Origin: a virus
Taxonomy: Duplodnaviria > Heunggongvirae > Uroviricota > Caudoviricetes
Virus record (IMG/VR): IMGVR_UViG_2562617057_000002
Direction: 5' to 3' (one strand)
DNA: 27,684 nt
The notes beneath the pieces are model-generated. The model ran no database searches. It was not told the DNA's origin and saw nothing but the letters and a program-made list of their open reading frames with translations. The position numbers were made by a program, and so were the translations under genes. Of this stretch, positions 1 to 26,950 are shown piece by piece; position 1 is the stretch's first letter, and the number at the start of each line of letters is the position of its first letter.

Positions 1-611
<611 letters not shown>

Positions 612-3957: not shown

Positions 3958-4599
3958 ATGAATGCACGAAAAGCGGTACTGGCAGACAATCCGGAATTGA
4001 TCCTGCGTGTGCTACAACTGAGATTTGACGAGTCACTGTCGTACCCGCGCATTTCTGCGCAGACCGGTATCAGCAAAACCGCCATTTTTTCTCTGGTGAG
4101 GCGATTTCACCAGGTATTCACTGACTGGCCTCTTTCCGGGGAATATTCCTGCGTGCAACTGGCCCGGGCTTTGTTCCCGGGGCGATACCCTTCAGCCCCG
4201 ACAGTAACTCAGACTGTGAAAACAGAGAAAAACCGCCGGAACCGATTTTCACCGGAGTTTAAATGGAGACTTGTTCAGCAAACTCTTTTACCCGGTGCCT
4301 GTGTCGCACAAATAGCTCGTGAGAACGGAATCAACGATAACCTGCTCTTTAACTGGCGGCATCTCTGGCGTAACGGCGGCCTGCAGCCGACCGGCGAACA
4401 TGAAACATCGCTACTTCCCGTGACGTTAACTCCGGAGCCGGATAATAAAATCCCGGCACCAGTGCAGATACCTGAACAGATGCCCGACAGTCTGTGCTGT
4501 GAGCTGGTTCTGCCGGCCGGAACTCTCAGGCTGAAAGGTGAACTGACACCGGCGTTATTACAGACACTTATCCGCGAAATGAAAGGGAGCAGCCACTGA
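3958..4599 (+). CDS. tnpA: IS66-family accessory protein TnpA-like (213 aa, with N-terminal extension)
   Basis: C-terminal half (RFSPEFKWRLVQQTL...IARENGINDNLLFNWR) matches the IS66 Orf1 HTH motif; first gene of the element; stop overlaps the tnpB start (ATGA). Confidence 0.75.
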   Translation: MNARKAVLADNPELILRVLQLRFDESLSYPRISAQTGISKTAIFSLVRRFHQVFTDWPLSGEYSCVQLARALFPGRYPSAPTVTQTVKTEKNRRNRFSPEFKWRLVQQTLLPGACVAQIARENGINDNLLFNWRHLWRNGGLQPTGEHETSLLPVTLTPEPDNKIPAPVQIPEQMPDSLCCELVLPAGTLRLKGELTPALLQTLIREMKGSSH

Positions 4600-4946
4600 T
4601 GATATCTCTCCCTGCCGGTTCGCGTATCTGGCTGGTTGCCGGTATCACCGACATGCGAAATGGTTTTAACGGCCTGGCATCAAAAGTTCAGAACGTCCTG
4701 AAGGATGACCCGTTCTCCGGGCATCTGTTCATCTTCCGCGGACGCCGGGGTGACCAGATAAAAGTGTTGTGGGCTGACAGTGACGGACTGTGCCTCTTCA
4801 CCAAACGCCTGGAGCGGGGCCGCTTCGTCTGGCCGGTTACCCGTGACGGCAAGGTGCACCTTACTCCGGCTCAGTTATCTATGCTTCTTGAAGGTATCAA
4901 CTGGAAGCACCCGAAACGAACGGAACGCGCTGGCATCCGCATATAA
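4599..4946 (+). CDS. tnpB: IS66-family TnpB (Orf2)
   Basis: 115 aa, MISLPAGSRIWLVAGITDMRNGFNGLA...KVLWADSDGLCLFTKRLERGRF is the characteristic IS66 Orf2 sequence. Confidence 0.85.
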   Translation: MISLPAGSRIWLVAGITDMRNGFNGLASKVQNVLKDDPFSGHLFIFRGRRGDQIKVLWADSDGLCLFTKRLERGRFVWPVTRDGKVHLTPAQLSMLLEGINWKHPKRTERAGIRI

Positions 4947-4965
4947 CCCGTTGTAAAGTGAGGAT

Positions 4966-6537
4966 ATGGACACCTCACTTGCTCATGAGAATGCCCGCCT
5001 GCGGGCACTGTTGCAGACGCAACAGGACACCATCCGCCAGATGGCGAAATACAACCGCCTGCTCTCACAGCGGGTGGCGGCTTATGCTTCCGAAATCAAC
5101 CGGCTGAAGGCGCTGGTTGCGAAACTGCAGCGCATGCAGTTCGGTAAAAGCTCAGAAAAACTTCGCGCTAAAACCGAACGACAGATACAGGAAGCACAGG
5201 AGCGAATCAGCGCACTTCAGGAAGAAATGGCGGAAACGCTGGGTGAGCAATATGACCCGGTACTGCCATCCGCCCTGCGCCAGTCTTCAGCCCGTAAACC
5301 GTTACCGACCTCACTTCCCCGTGAAACCCGGGTCATCCGGCCGGAAGAGGAATGCTGTCCGGCCTGTGGTGGTGACCTCAGTCCTCTGGGGTGTGATGTG
5401 TCAGAGCAACTGGAGCTTATCAGCAGCGCTTTTAAGGTTATCGAAACACAACGTCCGAAACTGGCCTGTTGCCGGTGCGACCATATCGTGCAGGCACCAG
5501 TACCTTCAAAACCCATTGCACGCAGTTATGCCGGAGCGGGGCTTCTGGCTCATATCGTCACCGGGAAGTATGCAGACCATCTGCCGTTATACCGCCAGTC
5601 AGAAATATACCGTCGTCAGGGCGTGGAACTGAGCCGCGCCACGCTGGGGCGCTGGACCGGTGCCGTTGCTGAACTGCTGGAGCCGCTGTATGACGTGCTG
5701 CGCCAGTATGTACTGATGCCCGGTAAAGTCCATGCGGATGATATCCCCGTTCCGGTCCAGGAGCCGGGCAGTGGTAAAACAAGAACTGCCCGGCTGTGGG
5801 TCTATGTCCGTGATGACCGTAACGCCGGTTCACAGATGCCCCCGGCGGTCTGGTTCGCGTACAGCCCGGACCGGAAAGGTATCCATCCACAAAATCACCT
5901 GGCCGGTTACAGCGGTGTGCTTCAGGCCGATGCTTACGGTGGTTACCGGGTGTTATACGAATCCGGCAGAATAACGGAAGCCGCGTGTATGGCTCATGCC
6001 CGGAGAAAAATCCACGATGTGCATGCAAGAGTGCCCACCGACATCACCACGGAAGCCCTGCAGCGTATCGGTGAACTGTATGCCATCGAGGCAGAGGTCC
6101 GGGGCTGTTCAGCAGAACAGCGTCTGGCGGCAAGAAAAGCCAGAGCCGCGCCACTGATGCAGTCACTGTATGACTGGATACAGCAACAGATGAAAACACT
6201 GTCGCGTCACTCGGATACGGCAAAAGCGTTCGCATACCTGCTGAAACAGTGGGATGCACTGAACGTGTACTGCAGTAATGGCTGGGTGGAAATCGACAAC
6301 AACATTGCAGAGAACGCCTTACGGGGAGTGGCCGTAGGCCGGAAAAACTGGCTCTTCGCGGGTTCTGACAGCGGTGGTGAACATGCTGCGGTGTTGTACT
6401 CGCTGATCGGCACATGCCGTCTGAACAATGTGGAGCCAGAAAAGTGGCTGCGTTACGTCATTGAACATATCCAGGACTGGCCGGCAAACCGGGTACGCGA
6501 TCTGTTGCCCTGGAAAGTTGATCTGAGCTCTCAGTAA
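4966..6537 (+). CDS. tnpC: IS66-family transposase TnpC (DDE)
   Basis: 523 aa; N-terminal coiled-coil/leucine-zipper region, Cys cluster (CPACGG...CCRCDH), C-terminal DDE core; typical IS66 Orf3. Confidence 0.85.
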
Positions 6538-6879: not shown

Positions 6880-7698
6880 TCACGGTTTGGGCTGGAAATT
6901 CTTATTCAGCGCTCTGCACTGCTCTTTGTCTTCTTCTTCATGGGCTTTAAATACAGAATAAGTATCAGGGTCAAAAAACGAGATAGATTCCACTTCCCTC
7001 TTGGCTACAAGTATCCGAAAGTCTTCAAGGCTAAGGCCGCCAAGACCTTCCGCTACAATTCCTTCTGACTGATAATGTCGGCGGTAGTTTGTTGTGATGT
7101 TTGTAGTTAACGTACCCTTATCCCGATACCCACTCAACAGCGGAAGAAGTTCAATATGGGTAAAATCGCCGTTTTCAAAACTTGGGCAGATAACAATTCC
7201 AACGTAAAATTTTCTGGATGAGAGTGTTATAATGACGGGAAATTGCCTGACTGCTGCTTCCATCAGGAAGCTCTCTTCTGGACTTGTGGAAACAATTCTT
7301 GCGATAGCATCCAACCTGCGATCCCCTTTCTCTGTTCTTTTTTTGCGCCGCCAACCGCAAAATGCAGCAAGAGCAACAGATGTCATTCCCCAGACTGCAG
7401 ATTTAAGATCCTTTATCGAATTTCCTCCATCAAAAGAGATAGGAAAAACTCTTTTCAGGGCATCAGGACCAAGATGAAAAAAATGCAGAATACCGTTAAT
7501 CAACCAGCGGTATACCCCAAGGAAACCAAGGATCGTACAAACAACCCACGCAACACAGACAAAAACAGCTCCCCAGGTTGCAACAAAAAAATAAGCGTCC
7601 CATCCCACAGAACGCTTATACCTATATCTTGTTTCCAAACAAAGAGTAACATAAACATAACCACTAATCAGTATGACAGCGATCAATAGCGTATTCAT
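6880..7698 (-). CDS. Hypothetical integral membrane protein (272 aa): ~4 N-terminal TM helices plus a ~150-aa C-terminal soluble domain
   Basis: Long ORF in an AT-rich segment; hydrophobic stretches at residues ~3-21, ~35-75, ~100-117 followed by RRKKRTEK (positive-inside); start adjoins the upstream small gene's stop; no family recognised. Confidence 0.6.
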   Translation of the reverse strand: MNTLLIAVILISGYVYVTLCLETRYRYKRSVGWDAYFFVATWGAVFVCVAWVVCTILGFLGVYRWLINGILHFFHLGPDALKRVFPISFDGGNSIKDLKSAVWGMTSVALAAFCGWRRKKRTEKGDRRLDAIARIVSTSPEESFLMEAAVRQFPVIITLSSRKFYVGIVICPSFENGDFTHIELLPLLSGYRDKGTLTTNITTNYRRHYQSEGIVAEGLGGLSLEDFRILVAKREVESISFFDPDTYSVFKAHEEEDKEQCRALNKNFQPKP

Positions 7699-17162: not shown

Positions 17163-17630
17163 TCAAAAATCATTATTGAAATTGTAGTCCATGAGATACT
17201 CATTTTTACAGGAGGGACATTGAGTTTTCGTATATTTATCGCCTTCCTCGATAGGGAAAGGTTGCAATATAGATATTGCTCTCTTCGCAAAACATTCTGG
17301 ACAAAAATACATGGTAATCTTGCCAGAGCTAGTATTGCACTGTCTGGCATACACAATCGTTCCAGTAATCAATTGGCGAGGTTCGCAGTCTTCACTTTGG
17401 AACTTAAACTTTTCTATCTCCGTGAGTTTTGCTTTGAGCGCAGCCTCATTGCTTTTAGAGATTGTCAGCTCATCAATGAGAGACAAATATTCAAGCTGAA
17501 TGCTTGACAACTTAGAGTTTATTTCAGACACAGCGCGATCAACCTCAGCCTGAGTTTTTGCTTCATTGAATAATTTTAACATTGATGCAGTCTCTTTGAG
17601 AGCTGACATCGCTAATGATAGATCAAACAT
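17163..17630 (-). CDS. Hypothetical coiled-coil plus C-terminal zinc-ribbon protein (155 aa from the ATG)
   Basis: Opposite-strand gene in an AT-rich segment of the early-left operon; N-terminal ~85 aa heptad-like helix; C-terminus C-x16-C ... CPEC-x22-CPSC. Confidence 0.55.
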   Translation of the reverse strand: MFDLSLAMSALKETASMLKLFNEAKTQAEVDRAVSEINSKLSSIQLEYLSLIDELTISKSNEAALKAKLTEIEKFKFQSEDCEPRQLITGTIVYARQCNTSSGKITMYFCPECFAKRAISILQPFPIEEGDKYTKTQCPSCKNEYLMDYNFNNDF

Positions 17631-17960
17631 CACTTGCTCACTCTTCTTATTGTTGGGGTATTCAGATTATACAAATTTCTTGTTGTTGGGGAATAACAGG
17701 AACCACCTCGCCTGACGTGGTTAAAAGCAGGCACACAACACGAAAGCGCACGGCGAGGTAGCTGGTCATAGATAGCCTGTCGTTAAATTTTCGCCGACCG
17801 TGCGCTTCCGGTTGTGGCAATCCGCGAAATGGCGCGGCGGTAAGTATGGCGGGGTTTCTCCGTTCCTCGCAAATGTCCACCGGGTTGTCAGGTTGACCAT
17901 ACGATTAAGTGACAACCCGCCACAACATCTCCAGATTGAGTTGTTGGCGATGAAACTTTT

Positions 17961-18394: not shown

Positions 18395-18628
18395 ATGAAA
18401 ATAGAAACTATCAGCTACATCAAGAAAAACGCAGCCTCACTGGACCTGGCGGAACCCATTCTTGTCACGCAGAATGGTGTTCCTGCATACGTAATTGAAT
18501 CCTATGAGCAGCAACAGGAACGCGAGAACGCTATTGCGTTACTGAAACTTCTCACTATTTCAGAAAACGACAAGTCTGAAGGTCGCGTGTTTTCAAAAGC
18601 ACAGTTGCTGGATAGCTTTAACAACTAA
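18395..18628 (+). CDS. Phd/YefM-family type II antitoxin
   Basis: 77 aa; AAGGA Shine-Dalgarno; Phd/YefM-like N-terminus; 8-nt gap to the toxin gene. Confidence 0.7.
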   Translation: MKIETISYIKKNAASLDLAEPILVTQNGVPAYVIESYEQQQERENAIALLKLLTISENDKSEGRVFSKAQLLDSFNN

Positions 18629-18636
18629 GGTTAACT

Positions 18637-18957
18637 ATGCAGGTTGAATACACACTTACCGCCAGAACAAGCCTTGAGCAAATTGCCGACCATCTCCGGA
18701 GTAACGACATTGACCCACGCCCTGTAATAGCAGAAATTCTTGAGCGATTTGAAACAAGAGTTACTGCATTCCCGTCCGGATGTCAGTTATGCCCGGAGTT
18801 GCTCAAGCTTGGCGTGGCTAAATACAGAGAGTGCAACACACCAGAAGGCTACAGAGTGCTGTACTCTGTCGAGGAGGATATTATCACTGCACACGTGATT
18901 CTTTCCCAACGTCAGGATATTAAACAGTTACTGTTCAGACGATTGATCAGAGTTTAG
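18637..18957 (+). CDS. ParE/RelE-superfamily type II toxin
   Basis: 106 aa; C-terminal GYRVLYSVEEDIITAHVILSQRQD matches the RelE/ParE fold signature; immediately downstream of the Phd-like gene. Confidence 0.7.
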   Translation: MQVEYTLTARTSLEQIADHLRSNDIDPRPVIAEILERFETRVTAFPSGCQLCPELLKLGVAKYRECNTPEGYRVLYSVEEDIITAHVILSQRQDIKQLLFRRLIRV

Positions 18958-20500: not shown

Positions 20501-20603
20501 ATATGAGTTGAGGTTAAAAAACAATGAGCACCGATAAACAAGTTTACCCACTGTATTACGAAGCAAAAAATGACAAAGTAAGAAAACGCCTCGGTATTAA
20601 AGG

Positions 20604-22029
20604 TAATGCCAGTCAGTTAAGCAACTGACTGGCTCTTTTTCGGGGCTGTGGGGTATTTCCAGGGCCTCTCCTTTACCACTCTCGGGAAGGCCCTTTCCCT
20701 TCTCGTCGGTAATTTCACAAGTTGTCCCATACTTGCAAGATCGCGCATCAGCTCCGGTATACGTCCCGGTGAAGCGCCCTGCAATGTCATCAGCATTCTC
20801 ATCACCATTCCGCATGATTCTGAGAAACTCAGTTGATTCGGCCAGTAACCTTTCAGATGTTCCGCCATTTTAATCATCTGATATCTCACCAGATTATAAG
20901 CCAGTAAGACACCCCACAGCTCTTGCTCCACAAGCTCCGGCTTTTTACTTCTCAGCGTCAGCCTGCTCAGTTGCATCGTCTGTTTTATCTCCCTGTATCC
21001 CAGTTCGATTTCCCAGCGATGACTGTACAGATCCGCCATTTCTCCTCCGGGGAAGCGCATGGCGTCCGTCATCGACGTCAGCAGATGGCAGACTTTTCCT
21101 TTGCGCGTCACGGTCAGCAGGCGGGCTGTCACTTCATTTCCCAGTCCCGGCCACTTTTTTCGTGCCTGCGGGCTGGTTTTCAGCTTCACCAGATGATCGC
21201 CTTTACCCAGTTTTCTGAGCTCTTCATATTGCGCTCCCTTTCTGAGAGGTATCATCCAGTGGCGGTGTTCTCCCGCCAGGCTCCAGGCATTTAACAGTCC
21301 CAGTGAGTAATAACCTTTATCCATTAACGTCAGAGTGTTATCGCCGGTTTGTTCTATAAGTTGCTCAGCAAGCTCATTTTCGCTGTTCTTCATCGTGCCG
21401 AAGGCTGCAGCCGTCAGCAGATGGCTGGTCAGTTCCATCTGGCAGACCATTTTGACCTGCGGGTAGAGCGCCGGGTTCCCGGCATGTGTCTGGCGGGGGA
21501 AGGCTGCATCGTTCTCTGGTGTATCCGGTGTGCGCCAGAACACACCATCGATGGCCAGCAGGGTCAGGCCGCACCAGTGCGGATGCGGCGTGGCGTTATG
21601 CCAGAGCTGCGCTGTTTTCGTGAACACGCGGCGGACAGCCTCACTTCCCAGGCGCTGGCGGGCCTGAATAACGGCACTGGGGGCAACGAAGGGGCGATTG
21701 CCCGGCAGCATGATGTCCAGGCGATTCACAATCTGGTGAAGAGGTTCTTTACGCTCAAGCGCCATGCCAACAATACACCAGACCATCATTTCGAGGGGAA
21801 GACGGCGCTTGCGTAGCGTTACAGTACCTGATTCGGCAAGGCAACGAGAGATGAGTTCGGGGTCGAGGTAATCCCCCAGAGAAGTCAGTGGGTTACGCAG
21901 AGAATCGTAACGGGATACCAGATCAAGAGCCTGTCCAATGTGCATAAAAAAATCCGGAAACAAGTGAGCGTTTCCGGATTCTTACACAGCCACTGGATCG
22001 GTCAACTGATCCTTAACTGATCGGCATTA
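20604..22029 (-). mobile_element. IS4 (1426 bp) with terminal inverted repeats and a 12-14 bp target-site duplication
   Basis: Ends TAATGCCAGTCAGTTAAG / reverse complement TAATGCCGATCAGTTAAG; direct repeat CTCGGTATTAAAGG at 20590-20603 and 22030-22043. Confidence 0.85.
20617..21945 (-). CDS. insG: IS4 transposase (DDE; InsG-like, 442 aa from MHIGQALDL)
   Basis: Sequence matches E. coli IS4 transposase as recalled; the track frame extends 6 codons further upstream (to 21963). Confidence 0.9.
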
Positions 22030-23881
22030 CTCGGTATTAAAGGCGGTTTTTACTGGGCTGAAGCGAAAAAATTATCCATTGCCATCTCCCGTGGTGCTGT
22101 TGCGATTGACGATGCAGGCTACGATGAAGATGACTTTAAAAAACCTGTTCACGTCAATTTGCCCGTTGTTGATGACCTCCCGCCAGAAGGCGTGTTTGAT
22201 ACGGAATTCTGCAACCGTTACGAAAAAGGCGGGGAAGATGGCATCACAATGGTATTTATCGCATCTTCTCCCTCTGTTCAGGACAAACCAGCCAGCACTG
22301 ACAATACCAACGTCAACGGCGAAGACATGACAGAAATTGAGGAGAACATGCTCCTGCCAGTTTCCGGTCAGGAACTGCCCATTCGCTGGCTTGCTCAACA
22401 CGGCAGCGAAAAACCGGTAACGCACGTTTCACGCGACGGACTCCAGGCATTACACATTGCTCGGGCTGAAGAACTACCGGCTGTTACTGCCCTGGCTGTT
22501 TCCCACAAAACCAGCCTGCTCGACCCGCTGGAAATTCGCGATCTCCACAAACTGGTTCGTGACACTGACAAAGTTTTCCCTAATCCTGGTAATTCAAGCC
22601 TGGGACTGATAACTGCTTTTTTCGAAGCATACCTGAACGCTGACTACACCGATCGAGGACTGCTGACAAAAGAGTGGATGAAGGGTAATCGTGTTTCACA
22701 CATCACTCGCACGGCTTCCGGTGCTAATGCTGGCGGCGGAAACCTCACCGATCGCGGCGAAGGTTTCGTACACGATCTGACGTCACTGGCGCGCGACGTA
22801 GCCACTGGCGTACTGGCCCGTTCAATGGATCTGGACATCTATAACCTTCATCCGGCACACGCTAAACGCATTGAGGAAATTATCGCTGAAAATAAACCGC
22901 CCTTTTCTGTTTTCCGCGACAAATTCATCACCATGCCTGGCGGGCTGGATTATTCCCGCGCCATCGTGGTTGCGTCCGTAAAAGAAGCACCAATTGGGAT
23001 CGAGGTCATCCCCGCGCACGTCACTGAATATCTGAACAAGGTACTGACTGAAACCGATCATGCCAACCCTGATCCGGAAATCGTGGATATTGCCTGCGGT
23101 CGCTCCTCTGCCCCGATGCCGCAGCGTGTAACAGAAGAAGGAAAACAGGATGATGAAGAAAAACCGCAACCATCTTGCGCAATGGCAGATGAACAGGCAA
23201 CGGCTGAAACAGTGGAACCGGATGCAACTGAACATCATCAGGACACGCAGCCGCTGGATGCTCAGTCACAGGTAAATGCTGTTGATGCGAAATATCAGGA
23301 ACTGCGGGCAGAACTCCATGAAGCCCGGAAAAACATTCCGCCCAAAAATCCTGTCGATGCAGACAAATTACTGGCTGCCTCTCGCGGAGAATTTGTTGAA
23401 GGGATTAGCGACCCGAATGATTCGAAATGGATTCCCGGTCATCATATCTCCTCAAATGAAGTCAAAAAAACGGAAAATGAAGTGCGACAGACCGAAGATA
23501 AACAGCACCAGAACAGCGAACCGGAGGAGGGAACACCCTGCAATCAGACTGGCGAGGATAACTGCCCTGACTGTGGCGCGGTGATGGGAGACGCAACTTA
23601 TCAGGAAACTTTTGACGAAAAAAAACCAGATGAAGCACAGGAAGAAGAGCCGAAGAAAACGGAAAAAGCTGATGATTTGTTACCGGAGAACGCTGGCAGC
23701 GATCAGCATAATGATAGCAATAATGAAACTGGCGAAGATGAACTCAACTGGAAAAGACAGGTGTTGATTGCGGCGGTTTACGGTTTATGTGCGAATCCTG
23801 CGTGCATAGCCTATGCGCCTGCAATCCCTGACATCGCAATGATGATTGCCAACAAGCTTGAAAATTTTGGAGTGACCAGTG

Positions 23882-24178
23882 ATGAGCGCTTACCCGATTT
23901 TTGATCGTATTGAAGAAATGGCATGGGCTCGTCACTACCAGCAGATCGTTCGTGAAGAAAAAGAAACGGAACTGGCGGACGACCTGGAAAAAGGTCTGCC
24001 TCAGCACCTGTTTGAATCGCTCTGCATCGACCATTTGCAACGCCACGGTGCCAATAAACAGGCAATCAGCCACGCATTTGATGATGATGTTGAGTTTCAG
24101 GAGCGCATGGCAGAACACATCCGGTACATGGCTGAAACCATTGCCCACCACCAGGTTGATATTGATTTGGAGGACTAA
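23882..24178 (+). CDS. RacC-like small protein (98 aa)
   Basis: WARHYQ..VREE ... [40 protein letters not shown] resembles Rac RacC as recalled; GGAGTGA Shine-Dalgarno; overlaps the 3' end of the RecE-like gene. Confidence 0.5.
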
Positions 24179-24183
24179 AATCT

Positions 24184-25281: not shown

Positions 25282-25331
25282 AACCAAGTGCATTTTGGAC
25301 ACGGTTTTTGAAAATATTAATGGAGGTGTTC

Positions 25332-25520
25332 ATGTATAAAATTACAGCCACTATTGAAAAGGAAGGTGGTTCTCCTGCCAGCTGGACAAGATACTCAAAG
25401 ACAAAACTAACGAAATCAGAATGCGAAAAAATGCTCTCAGGGGAAAAAGAAGCAGGCGCTTCCAGAGAGCAGAAAGTAAAACTGATAAATTTTAATTGCG
25501 AGAAACTTCAGTCCTCGTGA
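25332..25520 (+). CDS. Hypothetical small protein (62 aa from MYKITATIEKEGG)
   Basis: TGGAGGTG Shine-Dalgarno before the ATG at 25332. Confidence 0.45.
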   Translation: MYKITATIEKEGGSPASWTRYSKTKLTKSECEKMLSGEKEAGASREQKVKLINFNCEKLQSS

Positions 25521-25626
25521 ATTTCATTATATCCAGATTAGAACTTCATAGCTGATTATTAAAAATCAACCACACCCGCCAGTATTCTGTATATTTACTG
25601 GCGGTCATATCGTGAGAGGTATGGCA

Positions 25627-25908
25627 ATGAATCTTGTGACACTCAAAACGTGGGGAAAACTCAGATATCCGGATAACCCACCATCAATATCAACGCTGAG
25701 ACGATGGGCAAGGAATGGAAACATTTATCCTGCACCTGAACTACACGGGAGGAGTTACAGGGTGGTTCCGGAGGCTTTCTATATCAACCCAAATAAGGTT
25801 GATACCGATATAACACACCATCAGCCTAATGGGCGACAAGGGAGAGACAGTCCGTTAATGGAGAAGTTAAAACATGCAGCGGAAAAAATACGATCCCAAT
25901 TTGCCTAG
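25627..25908 (+). CDS. xis: Excisionase (Xis-like DNA-binding protein)
   Basis: Motif TLRRWARNGNIYPAPELHGRSYRV resembles lambda-type Xis; overlaps the integrase start; start codon uncertain (25612/25621/25627). Confidence 0.65.
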   Translation: MNLVTLKTWGKLRYPDNPPSISTLRRWARNGNIYPAPELHGRSYRVVPEAFYINPNKVDTDITHHQPNGRQGRDSPLMEKLKHAAEKIRSQFA

Positions 25909-26950
25909 AAACTTAACATATCGAAGGAGAGACAAAGCATATTACTGGCGCAACCCTCTGACGAAAGAAGAATTTACACTAGGTAAAATTTCAAGAAGAG
26001 ATGCAGTAACGCAGGCAATTGAAGCAAATCATTATATATACAAAAACTACTCTCCCGCTGCCTTAATTGAAAAACTTAAAGGGTTCGACTCATTTACTAT
26101 GGCAGACTGGATTGAACGTTACAAAACGATTCTTATAAGGAGAAAAGTGTCCAGAAATACTTATAAAATTCGGGCAAATCAACTGGAGACAATAAAAGAA
26201 AAATTGGGAGAGATTTTACTGACAGAAATAACCACTCGCCATATTGCCGAGTTTCTTGATTTGTGGATTGAAGGAGGGAAAAACACAATGGCAGGATCAA
26301 TGCGTTCTGTGTTGTCTGATATGTTTCGCGAGGCCATTGTTGAAGGACGTATATCTCAAAATCCAGTCACGCCAACAAGAGCACCGAAAATAGTAGTTAC
26401 AAGAGAACGACTGAAACTAAAGACATACAACTGCATCAGGGAGGCAGCAGATCAACTTCCGGCATGGTTCCCATTAGCTATGGATTTAGCCCTTGTAACA
26501 GGACAACGTCGCGAAGACATAACGAATATGCGGTTCAGTGATATTTATGATGATCGTCTCCACGTCAGGCAAATTAAGACAGGAATGATGATTGCTATCC
26601 CCCTGTCACTCAGCCTTCCTGTCGCTGGTCTACGGCTTGGTACAGTAGTTGAACGATGCCGCCTGGTAAGCCGGGGAGATTATCTAATCAGTGCCGGGAT
26701 TAGAAAAAACAGCCCTGACGGCAGCATTCACCCGGATGGCCTGACAAAAAAATTTGTCGCAGCCAGAAAATTCACAGGTATCCAGTTCAGTGAAAACCCA
26801 CCAACTTTTCACGAGATCAGAAGCCTGGCTGGACGATTGTACAAAGAAACATGTGGAGAAGAATTTGCTCAGCGTCTACTTGGCCACACATCGGAGAAGA
26901 CAACAAAAATGTATCTTGATGAGAGAGAAAAAACGTACTTACTGCTCTGA
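25874..26950 (+). CDS. int: Tyrosine site-specific integrase (lambda Int family)
   Basis: 358 aa; N-terminal arm-binding-like region, core and catalytic-domain motifs (R...HEIRS...[13 protein letters not shown]) with a C-terminal Tyr. Confidence 0.85.

Follow-up and report, generated by a model that had tools for sequence, protein, structure and literature searches.

What does the N-terminal region of RecE do when no nuclease is attached to it? The question is raised by a gene in IMG/VR record IMGVR_UViG_2562617057_000002, a 27,684-nucleotide stretch of DNA from a virus of the Caudoviricetes that we refer to as the window. Reviews place the nuclease domain of RecE at residues 564/606-866 and describe the N-terminal part as 'of unknown function' (PMC11611040, PMC11610958). 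An earlier reading of the window (the original prediction) had proposed that this gene encodes a homologue of the N-terminal region of RecE, that an unrelated tail takes the place of the nuclease domain and that the gene is split by the insertion sequence (IS) IS4. As judged from its sequence, the gene product is indeed a nuclease-less member of the RecE family. The gene is a conserved early-left gene of lambdoid (Rac-like) prophages, inactivated here by IS4. On balance we favor, more tentatively, the explanation that it codes for a nuclease-less scaffold with an exchangeable C-terminal slot.

Removal of IS4 and of one copy of the flanking repeat restores an open reading frame (ORF; 20524-20603 joined to 22044-23904) of 1941 nt. 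As proposed in the original prediction, it encodes 646 residues; it runs from the ATG at 20524 to the stop codon at 23902-23904. The reconstructed protein has an intact counterpart in the databases (P0001), which matches it at all but 2 residues. The NCBIfam exoVIII model NF007259 covers residues 1-591 with its positions 1-596 of 877 at a score of 1065.9 bits. This score stays under the equivalog cut-off of 1269 bits, as nothing in the protein matches the final third of the model. PF06630 (Exonuc_VIII, N-terminal region) was the one family that a Pfam scan found in the protein, with 131 bits at a cut-off of 25; there was no nuclease domain and no PF12684. A BLASTP comparison with RecE of E. 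coli K-12 (from NC_000913) aligned residues 48-591 with RecE residues 40-585 at 78% identity, with near-identity over residues ~108-480; the first ~47 residues represent a different allele. Since this alignment stops at RecE residue 585 and the nuclease domain begins at 564/606, the homology ends at the domain boundary. On the DNA level, the homology to a prophage with recE and recT ends at position 23737 of the window. The predicted homology to the RecE N-terminus is thus confirmed. The absence of a nuclease domain also holds, as neither Pfam nor the Protein Data Bank (PDB) gave a nuclease or any other match for the C-terminal part. As predicted, no recT is located next to the gene; according to domain scans, it is followed by gam, a gene for an AAA_24 ATPase, a DUF1187 gene, xis and int. 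With neither a nuclease domain nor a recT partner, and with a score under the equivalog cut-off, the protein is not RecE in the strict sense.

The C-terminal tail comprises about 55 residues, of which about 40 form a conserved helix-turn-helix part with the consensus LTYxQQLTIAALQGLCANPAyxxxxDDIPxMAxxLA. An alignment of 24 sequences shows no variation at the residues A, A, G, C, N and P of the tail. Tail sequences fit the motif QQLxxAAxxG(L/M)CANPA-x6-8-(I/L)PxxA, with one outlier (P0224), which has GLSSNPA. In the context of the whole protein, AlphaFold2 predicts the two tail helices at residues 596-610 and 618-634 with pLDDT (predicted local distance difference test) values of 72-90. Nei-Gojobori estimates from six loci gave a ratio of nonsynonymous to synonymous substitutions (dN/dS) of 0.05-0.11 for the tail, at dS values of 0.65-1.6, and of 0.06-0.12 for the core; the value for the acidic linker was 0.3-0.8. 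By this measure the tail and the core of the tail-type proteins are both under purifying selection. A Pfam scan of the tail matched no family and a PDB search with the tail gave no match; it is covered by the PHROG family phrog_26058, which is listed with 'unknown function'. The description of the tail as unrelated is therefore correct in so far as no known domain is matched. It is not correct in the sense of an arbitrary ending, because this two-helix module is conserved, selected and shared by divergent orthologues.

When the tail was used as a query for homologues, either by itself or as a profile, all proteins retrieved were short and most of them were fragments. These searches were useful only for finding a standalone form of the tail in Serratia. 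A tblastn search with the tail in a phage collection gave no match; this negative, for which the low-complexity filter of BLAST may be responsible, was discarded, since phage 75/02 Stx does have the tail. In prophages of Serratia quinivorans a free-standing ORF of 79 residues, present in 9 contigs, consists of a disordered leader and the two-helix tail with its CANPA motif. It has its own Shine-Dalgarno sequence and occupies the same operon position just upstream of xis-int. The two helices are predicted with pLDDT values of 87-94. No remnant of a RecE N-terminal region was found nearby upstream of this ORF.

The tail-bearing architecture is widespread. Among 1.84 billion cluster representatives, which were searched exhaustively, there were only 221 members of the family. 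According to our local classification, the tail is C-terminal in more than 20 cluster representatives with 20-30% overall identity to the query; those with a named source come from Kluyvera, Klebsiella, Cronobacter and Lelliottia. A genome scan adds tail-type genes in Citrobacter, Buttiauxella and Cedecea. The RecE-type core (residues ~225-390: RTxSGAxAGGGNxTDR ... PGxLDYSRA ... DIACGRSS) was found in more than 20 tail-bearing representatives. Intact proteins of 646 residues, which differ at 2-3 positions, occur in Shigella and E. coli, and full-length homologues of 646-671 residues with identities down to 78% occur in E. coli, Shigella and E. albertii. The viable phages 75/02 Stx (a Shigella phage), POCJ13, phiSTEC1589-Stx1c and PhiR5_2 (an Escherichia phage) encode orthologues of 682-690 residues, which retain the tail at an overall identity of 56%. 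Intact copies in other prophages, for which the original prediction had suggested a search, are therefore common in Shigella and E. coli. Its further view that a natural nuclease-less protein of this type could inform on the role of the N-terminal region is reasonable. The architecture is no rarity: among the cluster representatives, RecE-family proteins without a nuclease equal or exceed in number those that have one. Together, these comparisons show that the tail is a conserved and selected module and that this form of the gene is a widespread one and no truncation.

The same N-terminal part occurs with different endings. About 590 residues, with identities of 83-87%, are shared by proteins that end in the tail, in a PD-(D/E)XK 5'-3' nuclease (PF12684; 884 residues) or in a DEDDh 3'-5' exonuclease (PF16473; 814 residues). 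When aligned, the three types part immediately after a common linker that ends in '...SDETGE'. Other representatives of 690-814 residues end neither in a nuclease nor in the tail but in different conserved C-termini, for which a Pfam scan gave no match. At least two further conserved non-nuclease modules, '...YLEGRLRRLEEVK...' and '...LRAEKxxRK...HGE', were noted in members of 620-814 residues; the representatives with such C-termini are P0139, P0166, P0197, P0198, P0211, P0228 and P0265, and P0138, P0171, P0182 and P0189. The exchange is also visible in the DNA. A prophage with recE and recT that occupies the same yebY site is homologous to the window up to 23737 and then again from 25309. 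For a prophage that carries tail, gam, bet, exo and ralR, the first homologous stretch also includes the tail and gam and ends at 24180; the second likewise begins at 25309. From these breakpoints it follows that the region is built in this lineage from four blocks: the RecE N-terminal part, the tail plus gam, either the AAA ATPase or bet-exo-ralR, and rcbA-xis-int.

An AlphaFold2 model from an alignment of 47 sequences has a mean pLDDT of 74.9. It shows a confident N-terminal alpha/beta domain (residues 1-100), a helical domain at residues ~120-390 (window ~22321-23133) with pLDDT values above 90 from residue 190, and helices at 439-473. The segments 397-436 and 493-592 are predicted to be disordered. 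They correspond to acidic linkers; the first precedes the helices at 439-473 and the second ends in 'ETGE'. Residues 526-538 (window ~23539-23577) contain a degenerate Zn-ribbon-like C..CPDC motif. Most members of the family have a CxxC-x7-CPDC motif of this kind ahead of the last acidic linker; the allele of the window and those closely related to it have lost the first cysteine. The PDB gave no match in sequence or profile searches, and fold and domain searches gave no match that points to a function. The protein is acidic in every segment, with an overall isoelectric point of 4.67 and linkers very rich in D and E. We take this acidity as a hint against a simple electrostatic binding of DNA; it would be more in line with protein binding or mimicry.

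The copy in the window is interrupted by IS4, which is flanked by an exact 14-bp target-site duplication (Table 1). The original prediction had placed the insertion after codon 27 with an in-frame duplication. The 14-bp repeat, the coordinates of the gene and the reconstruction are correct, but the insertion in fact follows 26 codons plus 2 nt, and a duplication of 14 bp, a length not divisible by 3, cannot meaningfully be called 'in-frame'. The element has all the attributes of IS4: a length of 1426 bp, imperfect terminal inverted repeats of ~18 bp (TAATGCCAGTCAGTTAAG... / TAATGCCGATCAGTTAAG..., TAATGCC...), a direct target duplication and a DDE transposase of the IS4 type (448 codons, 20617-21963, minus strand) with the domains Nterm_IS4 and DDE_Tnp_1 (PF13006/PF01609). 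Complete E. coli genomes hold 100% identical copies annotated as 'IS4-like element IS4 family transposase'. Target duplications of IS4 are 11-13 bp long, so that the one found here is one base longer. The unrepaired 5' fragment codes for 27 native residues and seven IS-encoded residues and then stops; the longest 3' ORF begins with a TTG at 22159 and codes for 581 residues. The split copy almost certainly expresses no full protein, in agreement with the earlier view that it is probably inactive. The identical IS4-disrupted arrangement is recorded in assembly GCA_000167915.2. An intact paralogue of 646 residues (P0004), which differs at 3 positions, has E. coli 53638 as its named source, and the strain with the split copy probably carries two related prophages. 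The same gene has been interrupted independently in E. coli FDAARGOS_944 and RMDEC465, by ISEc60 of the IS4 family and ISSso6 of the IS110 family.

The gene lies in the early-left operon upstream of xis-int, in the window as well as in loci L001-L013. Its upstream neighbours in the window are a gene for a Rha-family regulator, a YdaE-family gene and an ORF of phrog_2434. Downstream the operon ends at int, and the chromosomal gene yebY follows. The tail and gam, which overlap, move as one mosaic block in phages of the E. coli lineage. The AAA_24 ATPase fills the exact place of bet-exo-ralR in sister prophages at the yebY site, and it may provide the module with its annealing or recombinase activity. 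At the loci of Citrobacter, Lelliottia, Buttiauxella and Cedecea, small ORFs, xis and int come after the tail-type gene. Homologues of gam, Bet or Exo are not detectable there, and the upstream stretch of up to about 5 kb contains no ORF of the size of an annealing protein. The gene of the DEDDh type has xis-int directly downstream. An obligate coupling of tail and gam was considered and rejected, as gam is absent from tail-type genes in Citrobacter, Lelliottia, Buttiauxella, Cedecea and Serratia.

Table 1. Features of the IS4-split RecE-family gene and its surroundings; positions refer to the window except in the last row.
Feature	Position	Strand	Remarks
IS21 istB fragment	34-552		
IS66-family element	3958-6537		three ORFs
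IS110-family transposase	11653-12849		
5' fragment of RecE-family gene	20524..20603	+	codons 1-26 plus 2 nt
Left copy of 14-bp target-site duplication CTCGGTATTAAAGG	20590..20603	.	exact direct repeat
IS4, 1426 bp, terminal inverted repeats	20604..22029	-	100% identity to annotated IS4
Right copy of 14-bp target-site duplication CTCGGTATTAAAGG	22030..22043	.	exact direct repeat
Rest of RecE N-terminal-region homology (residues 27-591)	22044..23736	+	profile, alignment, model
Two-helix tail module (residues ~592-646) and stop	23737..23904	+	alignment, model, breakpoint
gam (lambda Gam family host-nuclease inhibitor)	23882..24178	+	overlaps last 23 nt of RecE-family gene
AAA_24 / Sak4-like ATPase, 365 aa	24184..25281	+	phrog_1366 (unknown function); weak Sak4-like match, 1e-8
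DUF1187/RcbA-like gene	25308-25520	+	resembles Rac RcbA
Excisionase (xis)	25612-25908	+	
Integrase (int)	25874-26950	+	
Standalone tail ORF of Serratia	loci L015-L017, 5001-5240		

The four IS elements or fragments in the window indicate an IS-rich genome of the Shigella or enteroinvasive E. coli type with a decaying lambdoid prophage at yebY. The early region of the prophage also contains a gene pair for a Phd/YefM-type antitoxin (77 residues) and a ParE-type toxin (106 residues) at 18395-18957. Two further ORFs on the minus strand, of 272 residues (6880-7698) and 156 residues (17163-17633), had no Pfam match.

The closest known systems differ from the 646-residue protein in defined ways. RecE of the K-12 prophage Rac (866 residues) has the same PF06630 region and the same early-left position after kilR/ydaE/racC-like genes, but it carries the PD-(D/E)XK domain (~564/606-866) and is accompanied by recT, where the present protein has the two-helix tail. 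The gp06 proteins of 75/02 Stx and POCJ13 and their homologues in phiSTEC1589-Stx1c and PhiR5_2 are alike over the full length including the tail, and their genes overlap gam in the same way. They differ in a very divergent middle region (residues ~100-225); also, the phages of the 75/02 Stx type have intact genes with gam-bet-exo downstream, whereas gam and the Sak4-like AAA ATPase follow in the window. The fusion to a DEDDh domain (PF06630 plus PF16473), which is found in prophages at the ompW site, is 83% identical over the N-terminal ~590 residues and splits off right after 'ETGE'; it continues into a DnaQ-like 3'-5' exonuclease domain. The tail-bearing members of phrog_607, phrog_26058 and the proteins called 'RecE-2' share the core, the CANPA tail, the operon position and the lack of a nuclease domain. 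Within this group the form from E. coli and Shigella is linked to gam and keeps the Rac-type middle with the helices at 439-473 and the Zn-ribbon remnant, while the Citrobacter/Klebsiella type has another domain before the tail. Nuclease-less 'RecE-2' proteins have been mentioned in the literature as proteins of unknown role and without an analysis (PMC12315714, 2025); this exact subfamily may be among them. A literature search found no other paper on nuclease-less relatives of RecE. The tail module, its selection, its standalone form and the precise junction shared by the different endings seem not to have been described before. These new points concern the family and not the IS4-damaged copy.

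How could such a protein work? Tentatively, we suggest that the N-terminal region of RecE is a non-catalytic and strongly acidic scaffold that binds proteins, and we assume that it does the same job here as in full-length RecE. Full-length RecE improves linear-linear recombination over that of the nuclease domain alone (PMC11611040, PMC11610958). The C-terminal position might be an interchangeable slot for effectors, in which the two-helix tail would act as a docking or oligomerisation element. Processing and annealing of DNA ends would then be supplied in trans, by adjacent Exo/Bet, by the Sak4-like ATPase or, where no phage partner is encoded, by enzymes of the host. It is in favor of this scheme that such partners are not required next to the gene; neither an annealing protein nor a nuclease of the phage adjoins the genes of the tail type and the DEDDh type in several genera. 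Other points weigh against it. The idea of a slot is drawn from domain architecture, and the presumed nuclease inactivity is deduced from the lack of recognisable domains. Furthermore, recombination genes are missing next to the tail-type gene in Citrobacter, Lelliottia, Buttiauxella and Cedecea, so that the data agree equally well with a role that has nothing to do with recombination.

A more specific version of docking assumes that the tail replaces the fused nuclease by recruiting one in trans, either lambda Exo or a host enzyme (an exonuclease or one of the RecBCD type). A precedent for such a mechanism is Abc2 of phage P22, which hijacks RecBCD. The tail sits exactly where two different exonuclease domains are found, after the same 'ETGE' linker, and gam-bet-exo adjoins the tail-type gene in E. 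coli and in Stx phages. In other genera no phage nuclease is near, so that the partner would have to come from the host. On the other hand, the presence of Gam next door makes RecBCD a less likely partner for the E. coli versions, and the further non-nuclease C-termini of the family show that the slot is not obligatorily related to nucleases. We consider this adaptor function possible but unlikely.

It is also conceivable, with a similarly low probability, that the N-terminal ~590 residues are an autonomous phage effector and that the CANPA tail is a portable docking module, which captures a DNA-end enzyme of host or phage or drives assembly; in that case Rac RecE would be a secondary fusion, and the ancestral or main functional state would be one without a nuclease. 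If this were true, the partner of the tail would reveal the role of the RecE N-terminus. Quite unlikely is a stricter form of this idea, in which the N-terminal region acts outside recombination, in host takeover, in anti-defence or as an acidic mimic of DNA or protein, with C-termini that only oligomerise and nuclease fusions that are secondary. The lack of any nuclease in most representatives of the family, the frequent location of tail-type and DEDDh-type genes alone before xis-int without an annealing protein, and the acidic character with long disordered linkers rich in D and E are all consistent with it. The same is true for the genetic finding that RecE recombination needs no part of the protein other than its nuclease domain (PMC11611040). 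But the gain in linear-linear recombination with full-length RecE ties the N-terminal region to recombination, and the gene is always located in the recombination-module position of the early-left operon. In addition, no similarity to a known anti-defence protein was found, although PADLOC, a collection of defence and not of anti-defence proteins, was not searched.

The view that the gene is a decay product, which has lost the nuclease domain and recT by recombination or deletion and reads through into a meaningless tail, is very improbable. The heavy degradation of the window prophage by IS elements, the score below the exoVIII equivalog cut-off and the call 'incomplete, missing C-terminus' for an intact copy by the Prokaryotic Genome Annotation Pipeline (PGAP) could be taken in its favor. 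However, the tail is under strong purifying selection, is predicted with confidence to fold, has been kept in more than 20 clusters at 20-30% overall identity and is present in viable, plaque-forming Stx phages; PGAP itself annotates other copies as intact coding sequences. The selection on the tail and the breadth of its conservation largely refute the reading as a truncated pseudogene. Equally improbable is an anchoring of the protein in the inner membrane by the tail: the Kyte-Doolittle mean over 19 residues peaks at 1.72 in the E. coli-type tail, a value at the border of the transmembrane range, but orthologous tails reach only 0.8-1.2, which makes a conserved anchor unlikely and led us to reject it, and the segment contains conserved charged residues (DD/DE, R) and is predicted as a helix-turn-helix hairpin with helices of only 15-17 residues.

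The scaffold with an exchangeable C-terminal slot thus remains our preferred, though tentative, explanation. The annotation of the family is a separate problem. Nuclease-less proteins of this family are routinely labeled as exodeoxyribonucleases or flagged as pseudogenes. Their database labels read 'exodeoxyribonuclease VIII' or 'RecE family exodeoxyribonuclease'. PGAP flags the intact copy of E. coli CFSAN029787 (L001, 5921-7693) as a pseudogene, 'RecE family exodeoxyribonuclease, incomplete, missing C-terminus', and calls the orthologues in L003 and L004 (4921-6918/6939) intact 'RecE family exodeoxyribonuclease'; all of them are without the nuclease domain.

For the biology of the RecE family, the IS4-disrupted copy of the window adds nothing further, and it is not the best specimen for studying the role of the N-terminal region. 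Nuclease-less versions are common, are under selection and occur in viable phages, for which K-12 or Shigella can serve as plating host. Together with the conserved C-terminal module, which in Serratia also exists as a separate ORF, they offer a practical route to the question of what the N-terminus of RecE does. The main value of the locus is that it points to these tractable, intact orthologues in viable phages.

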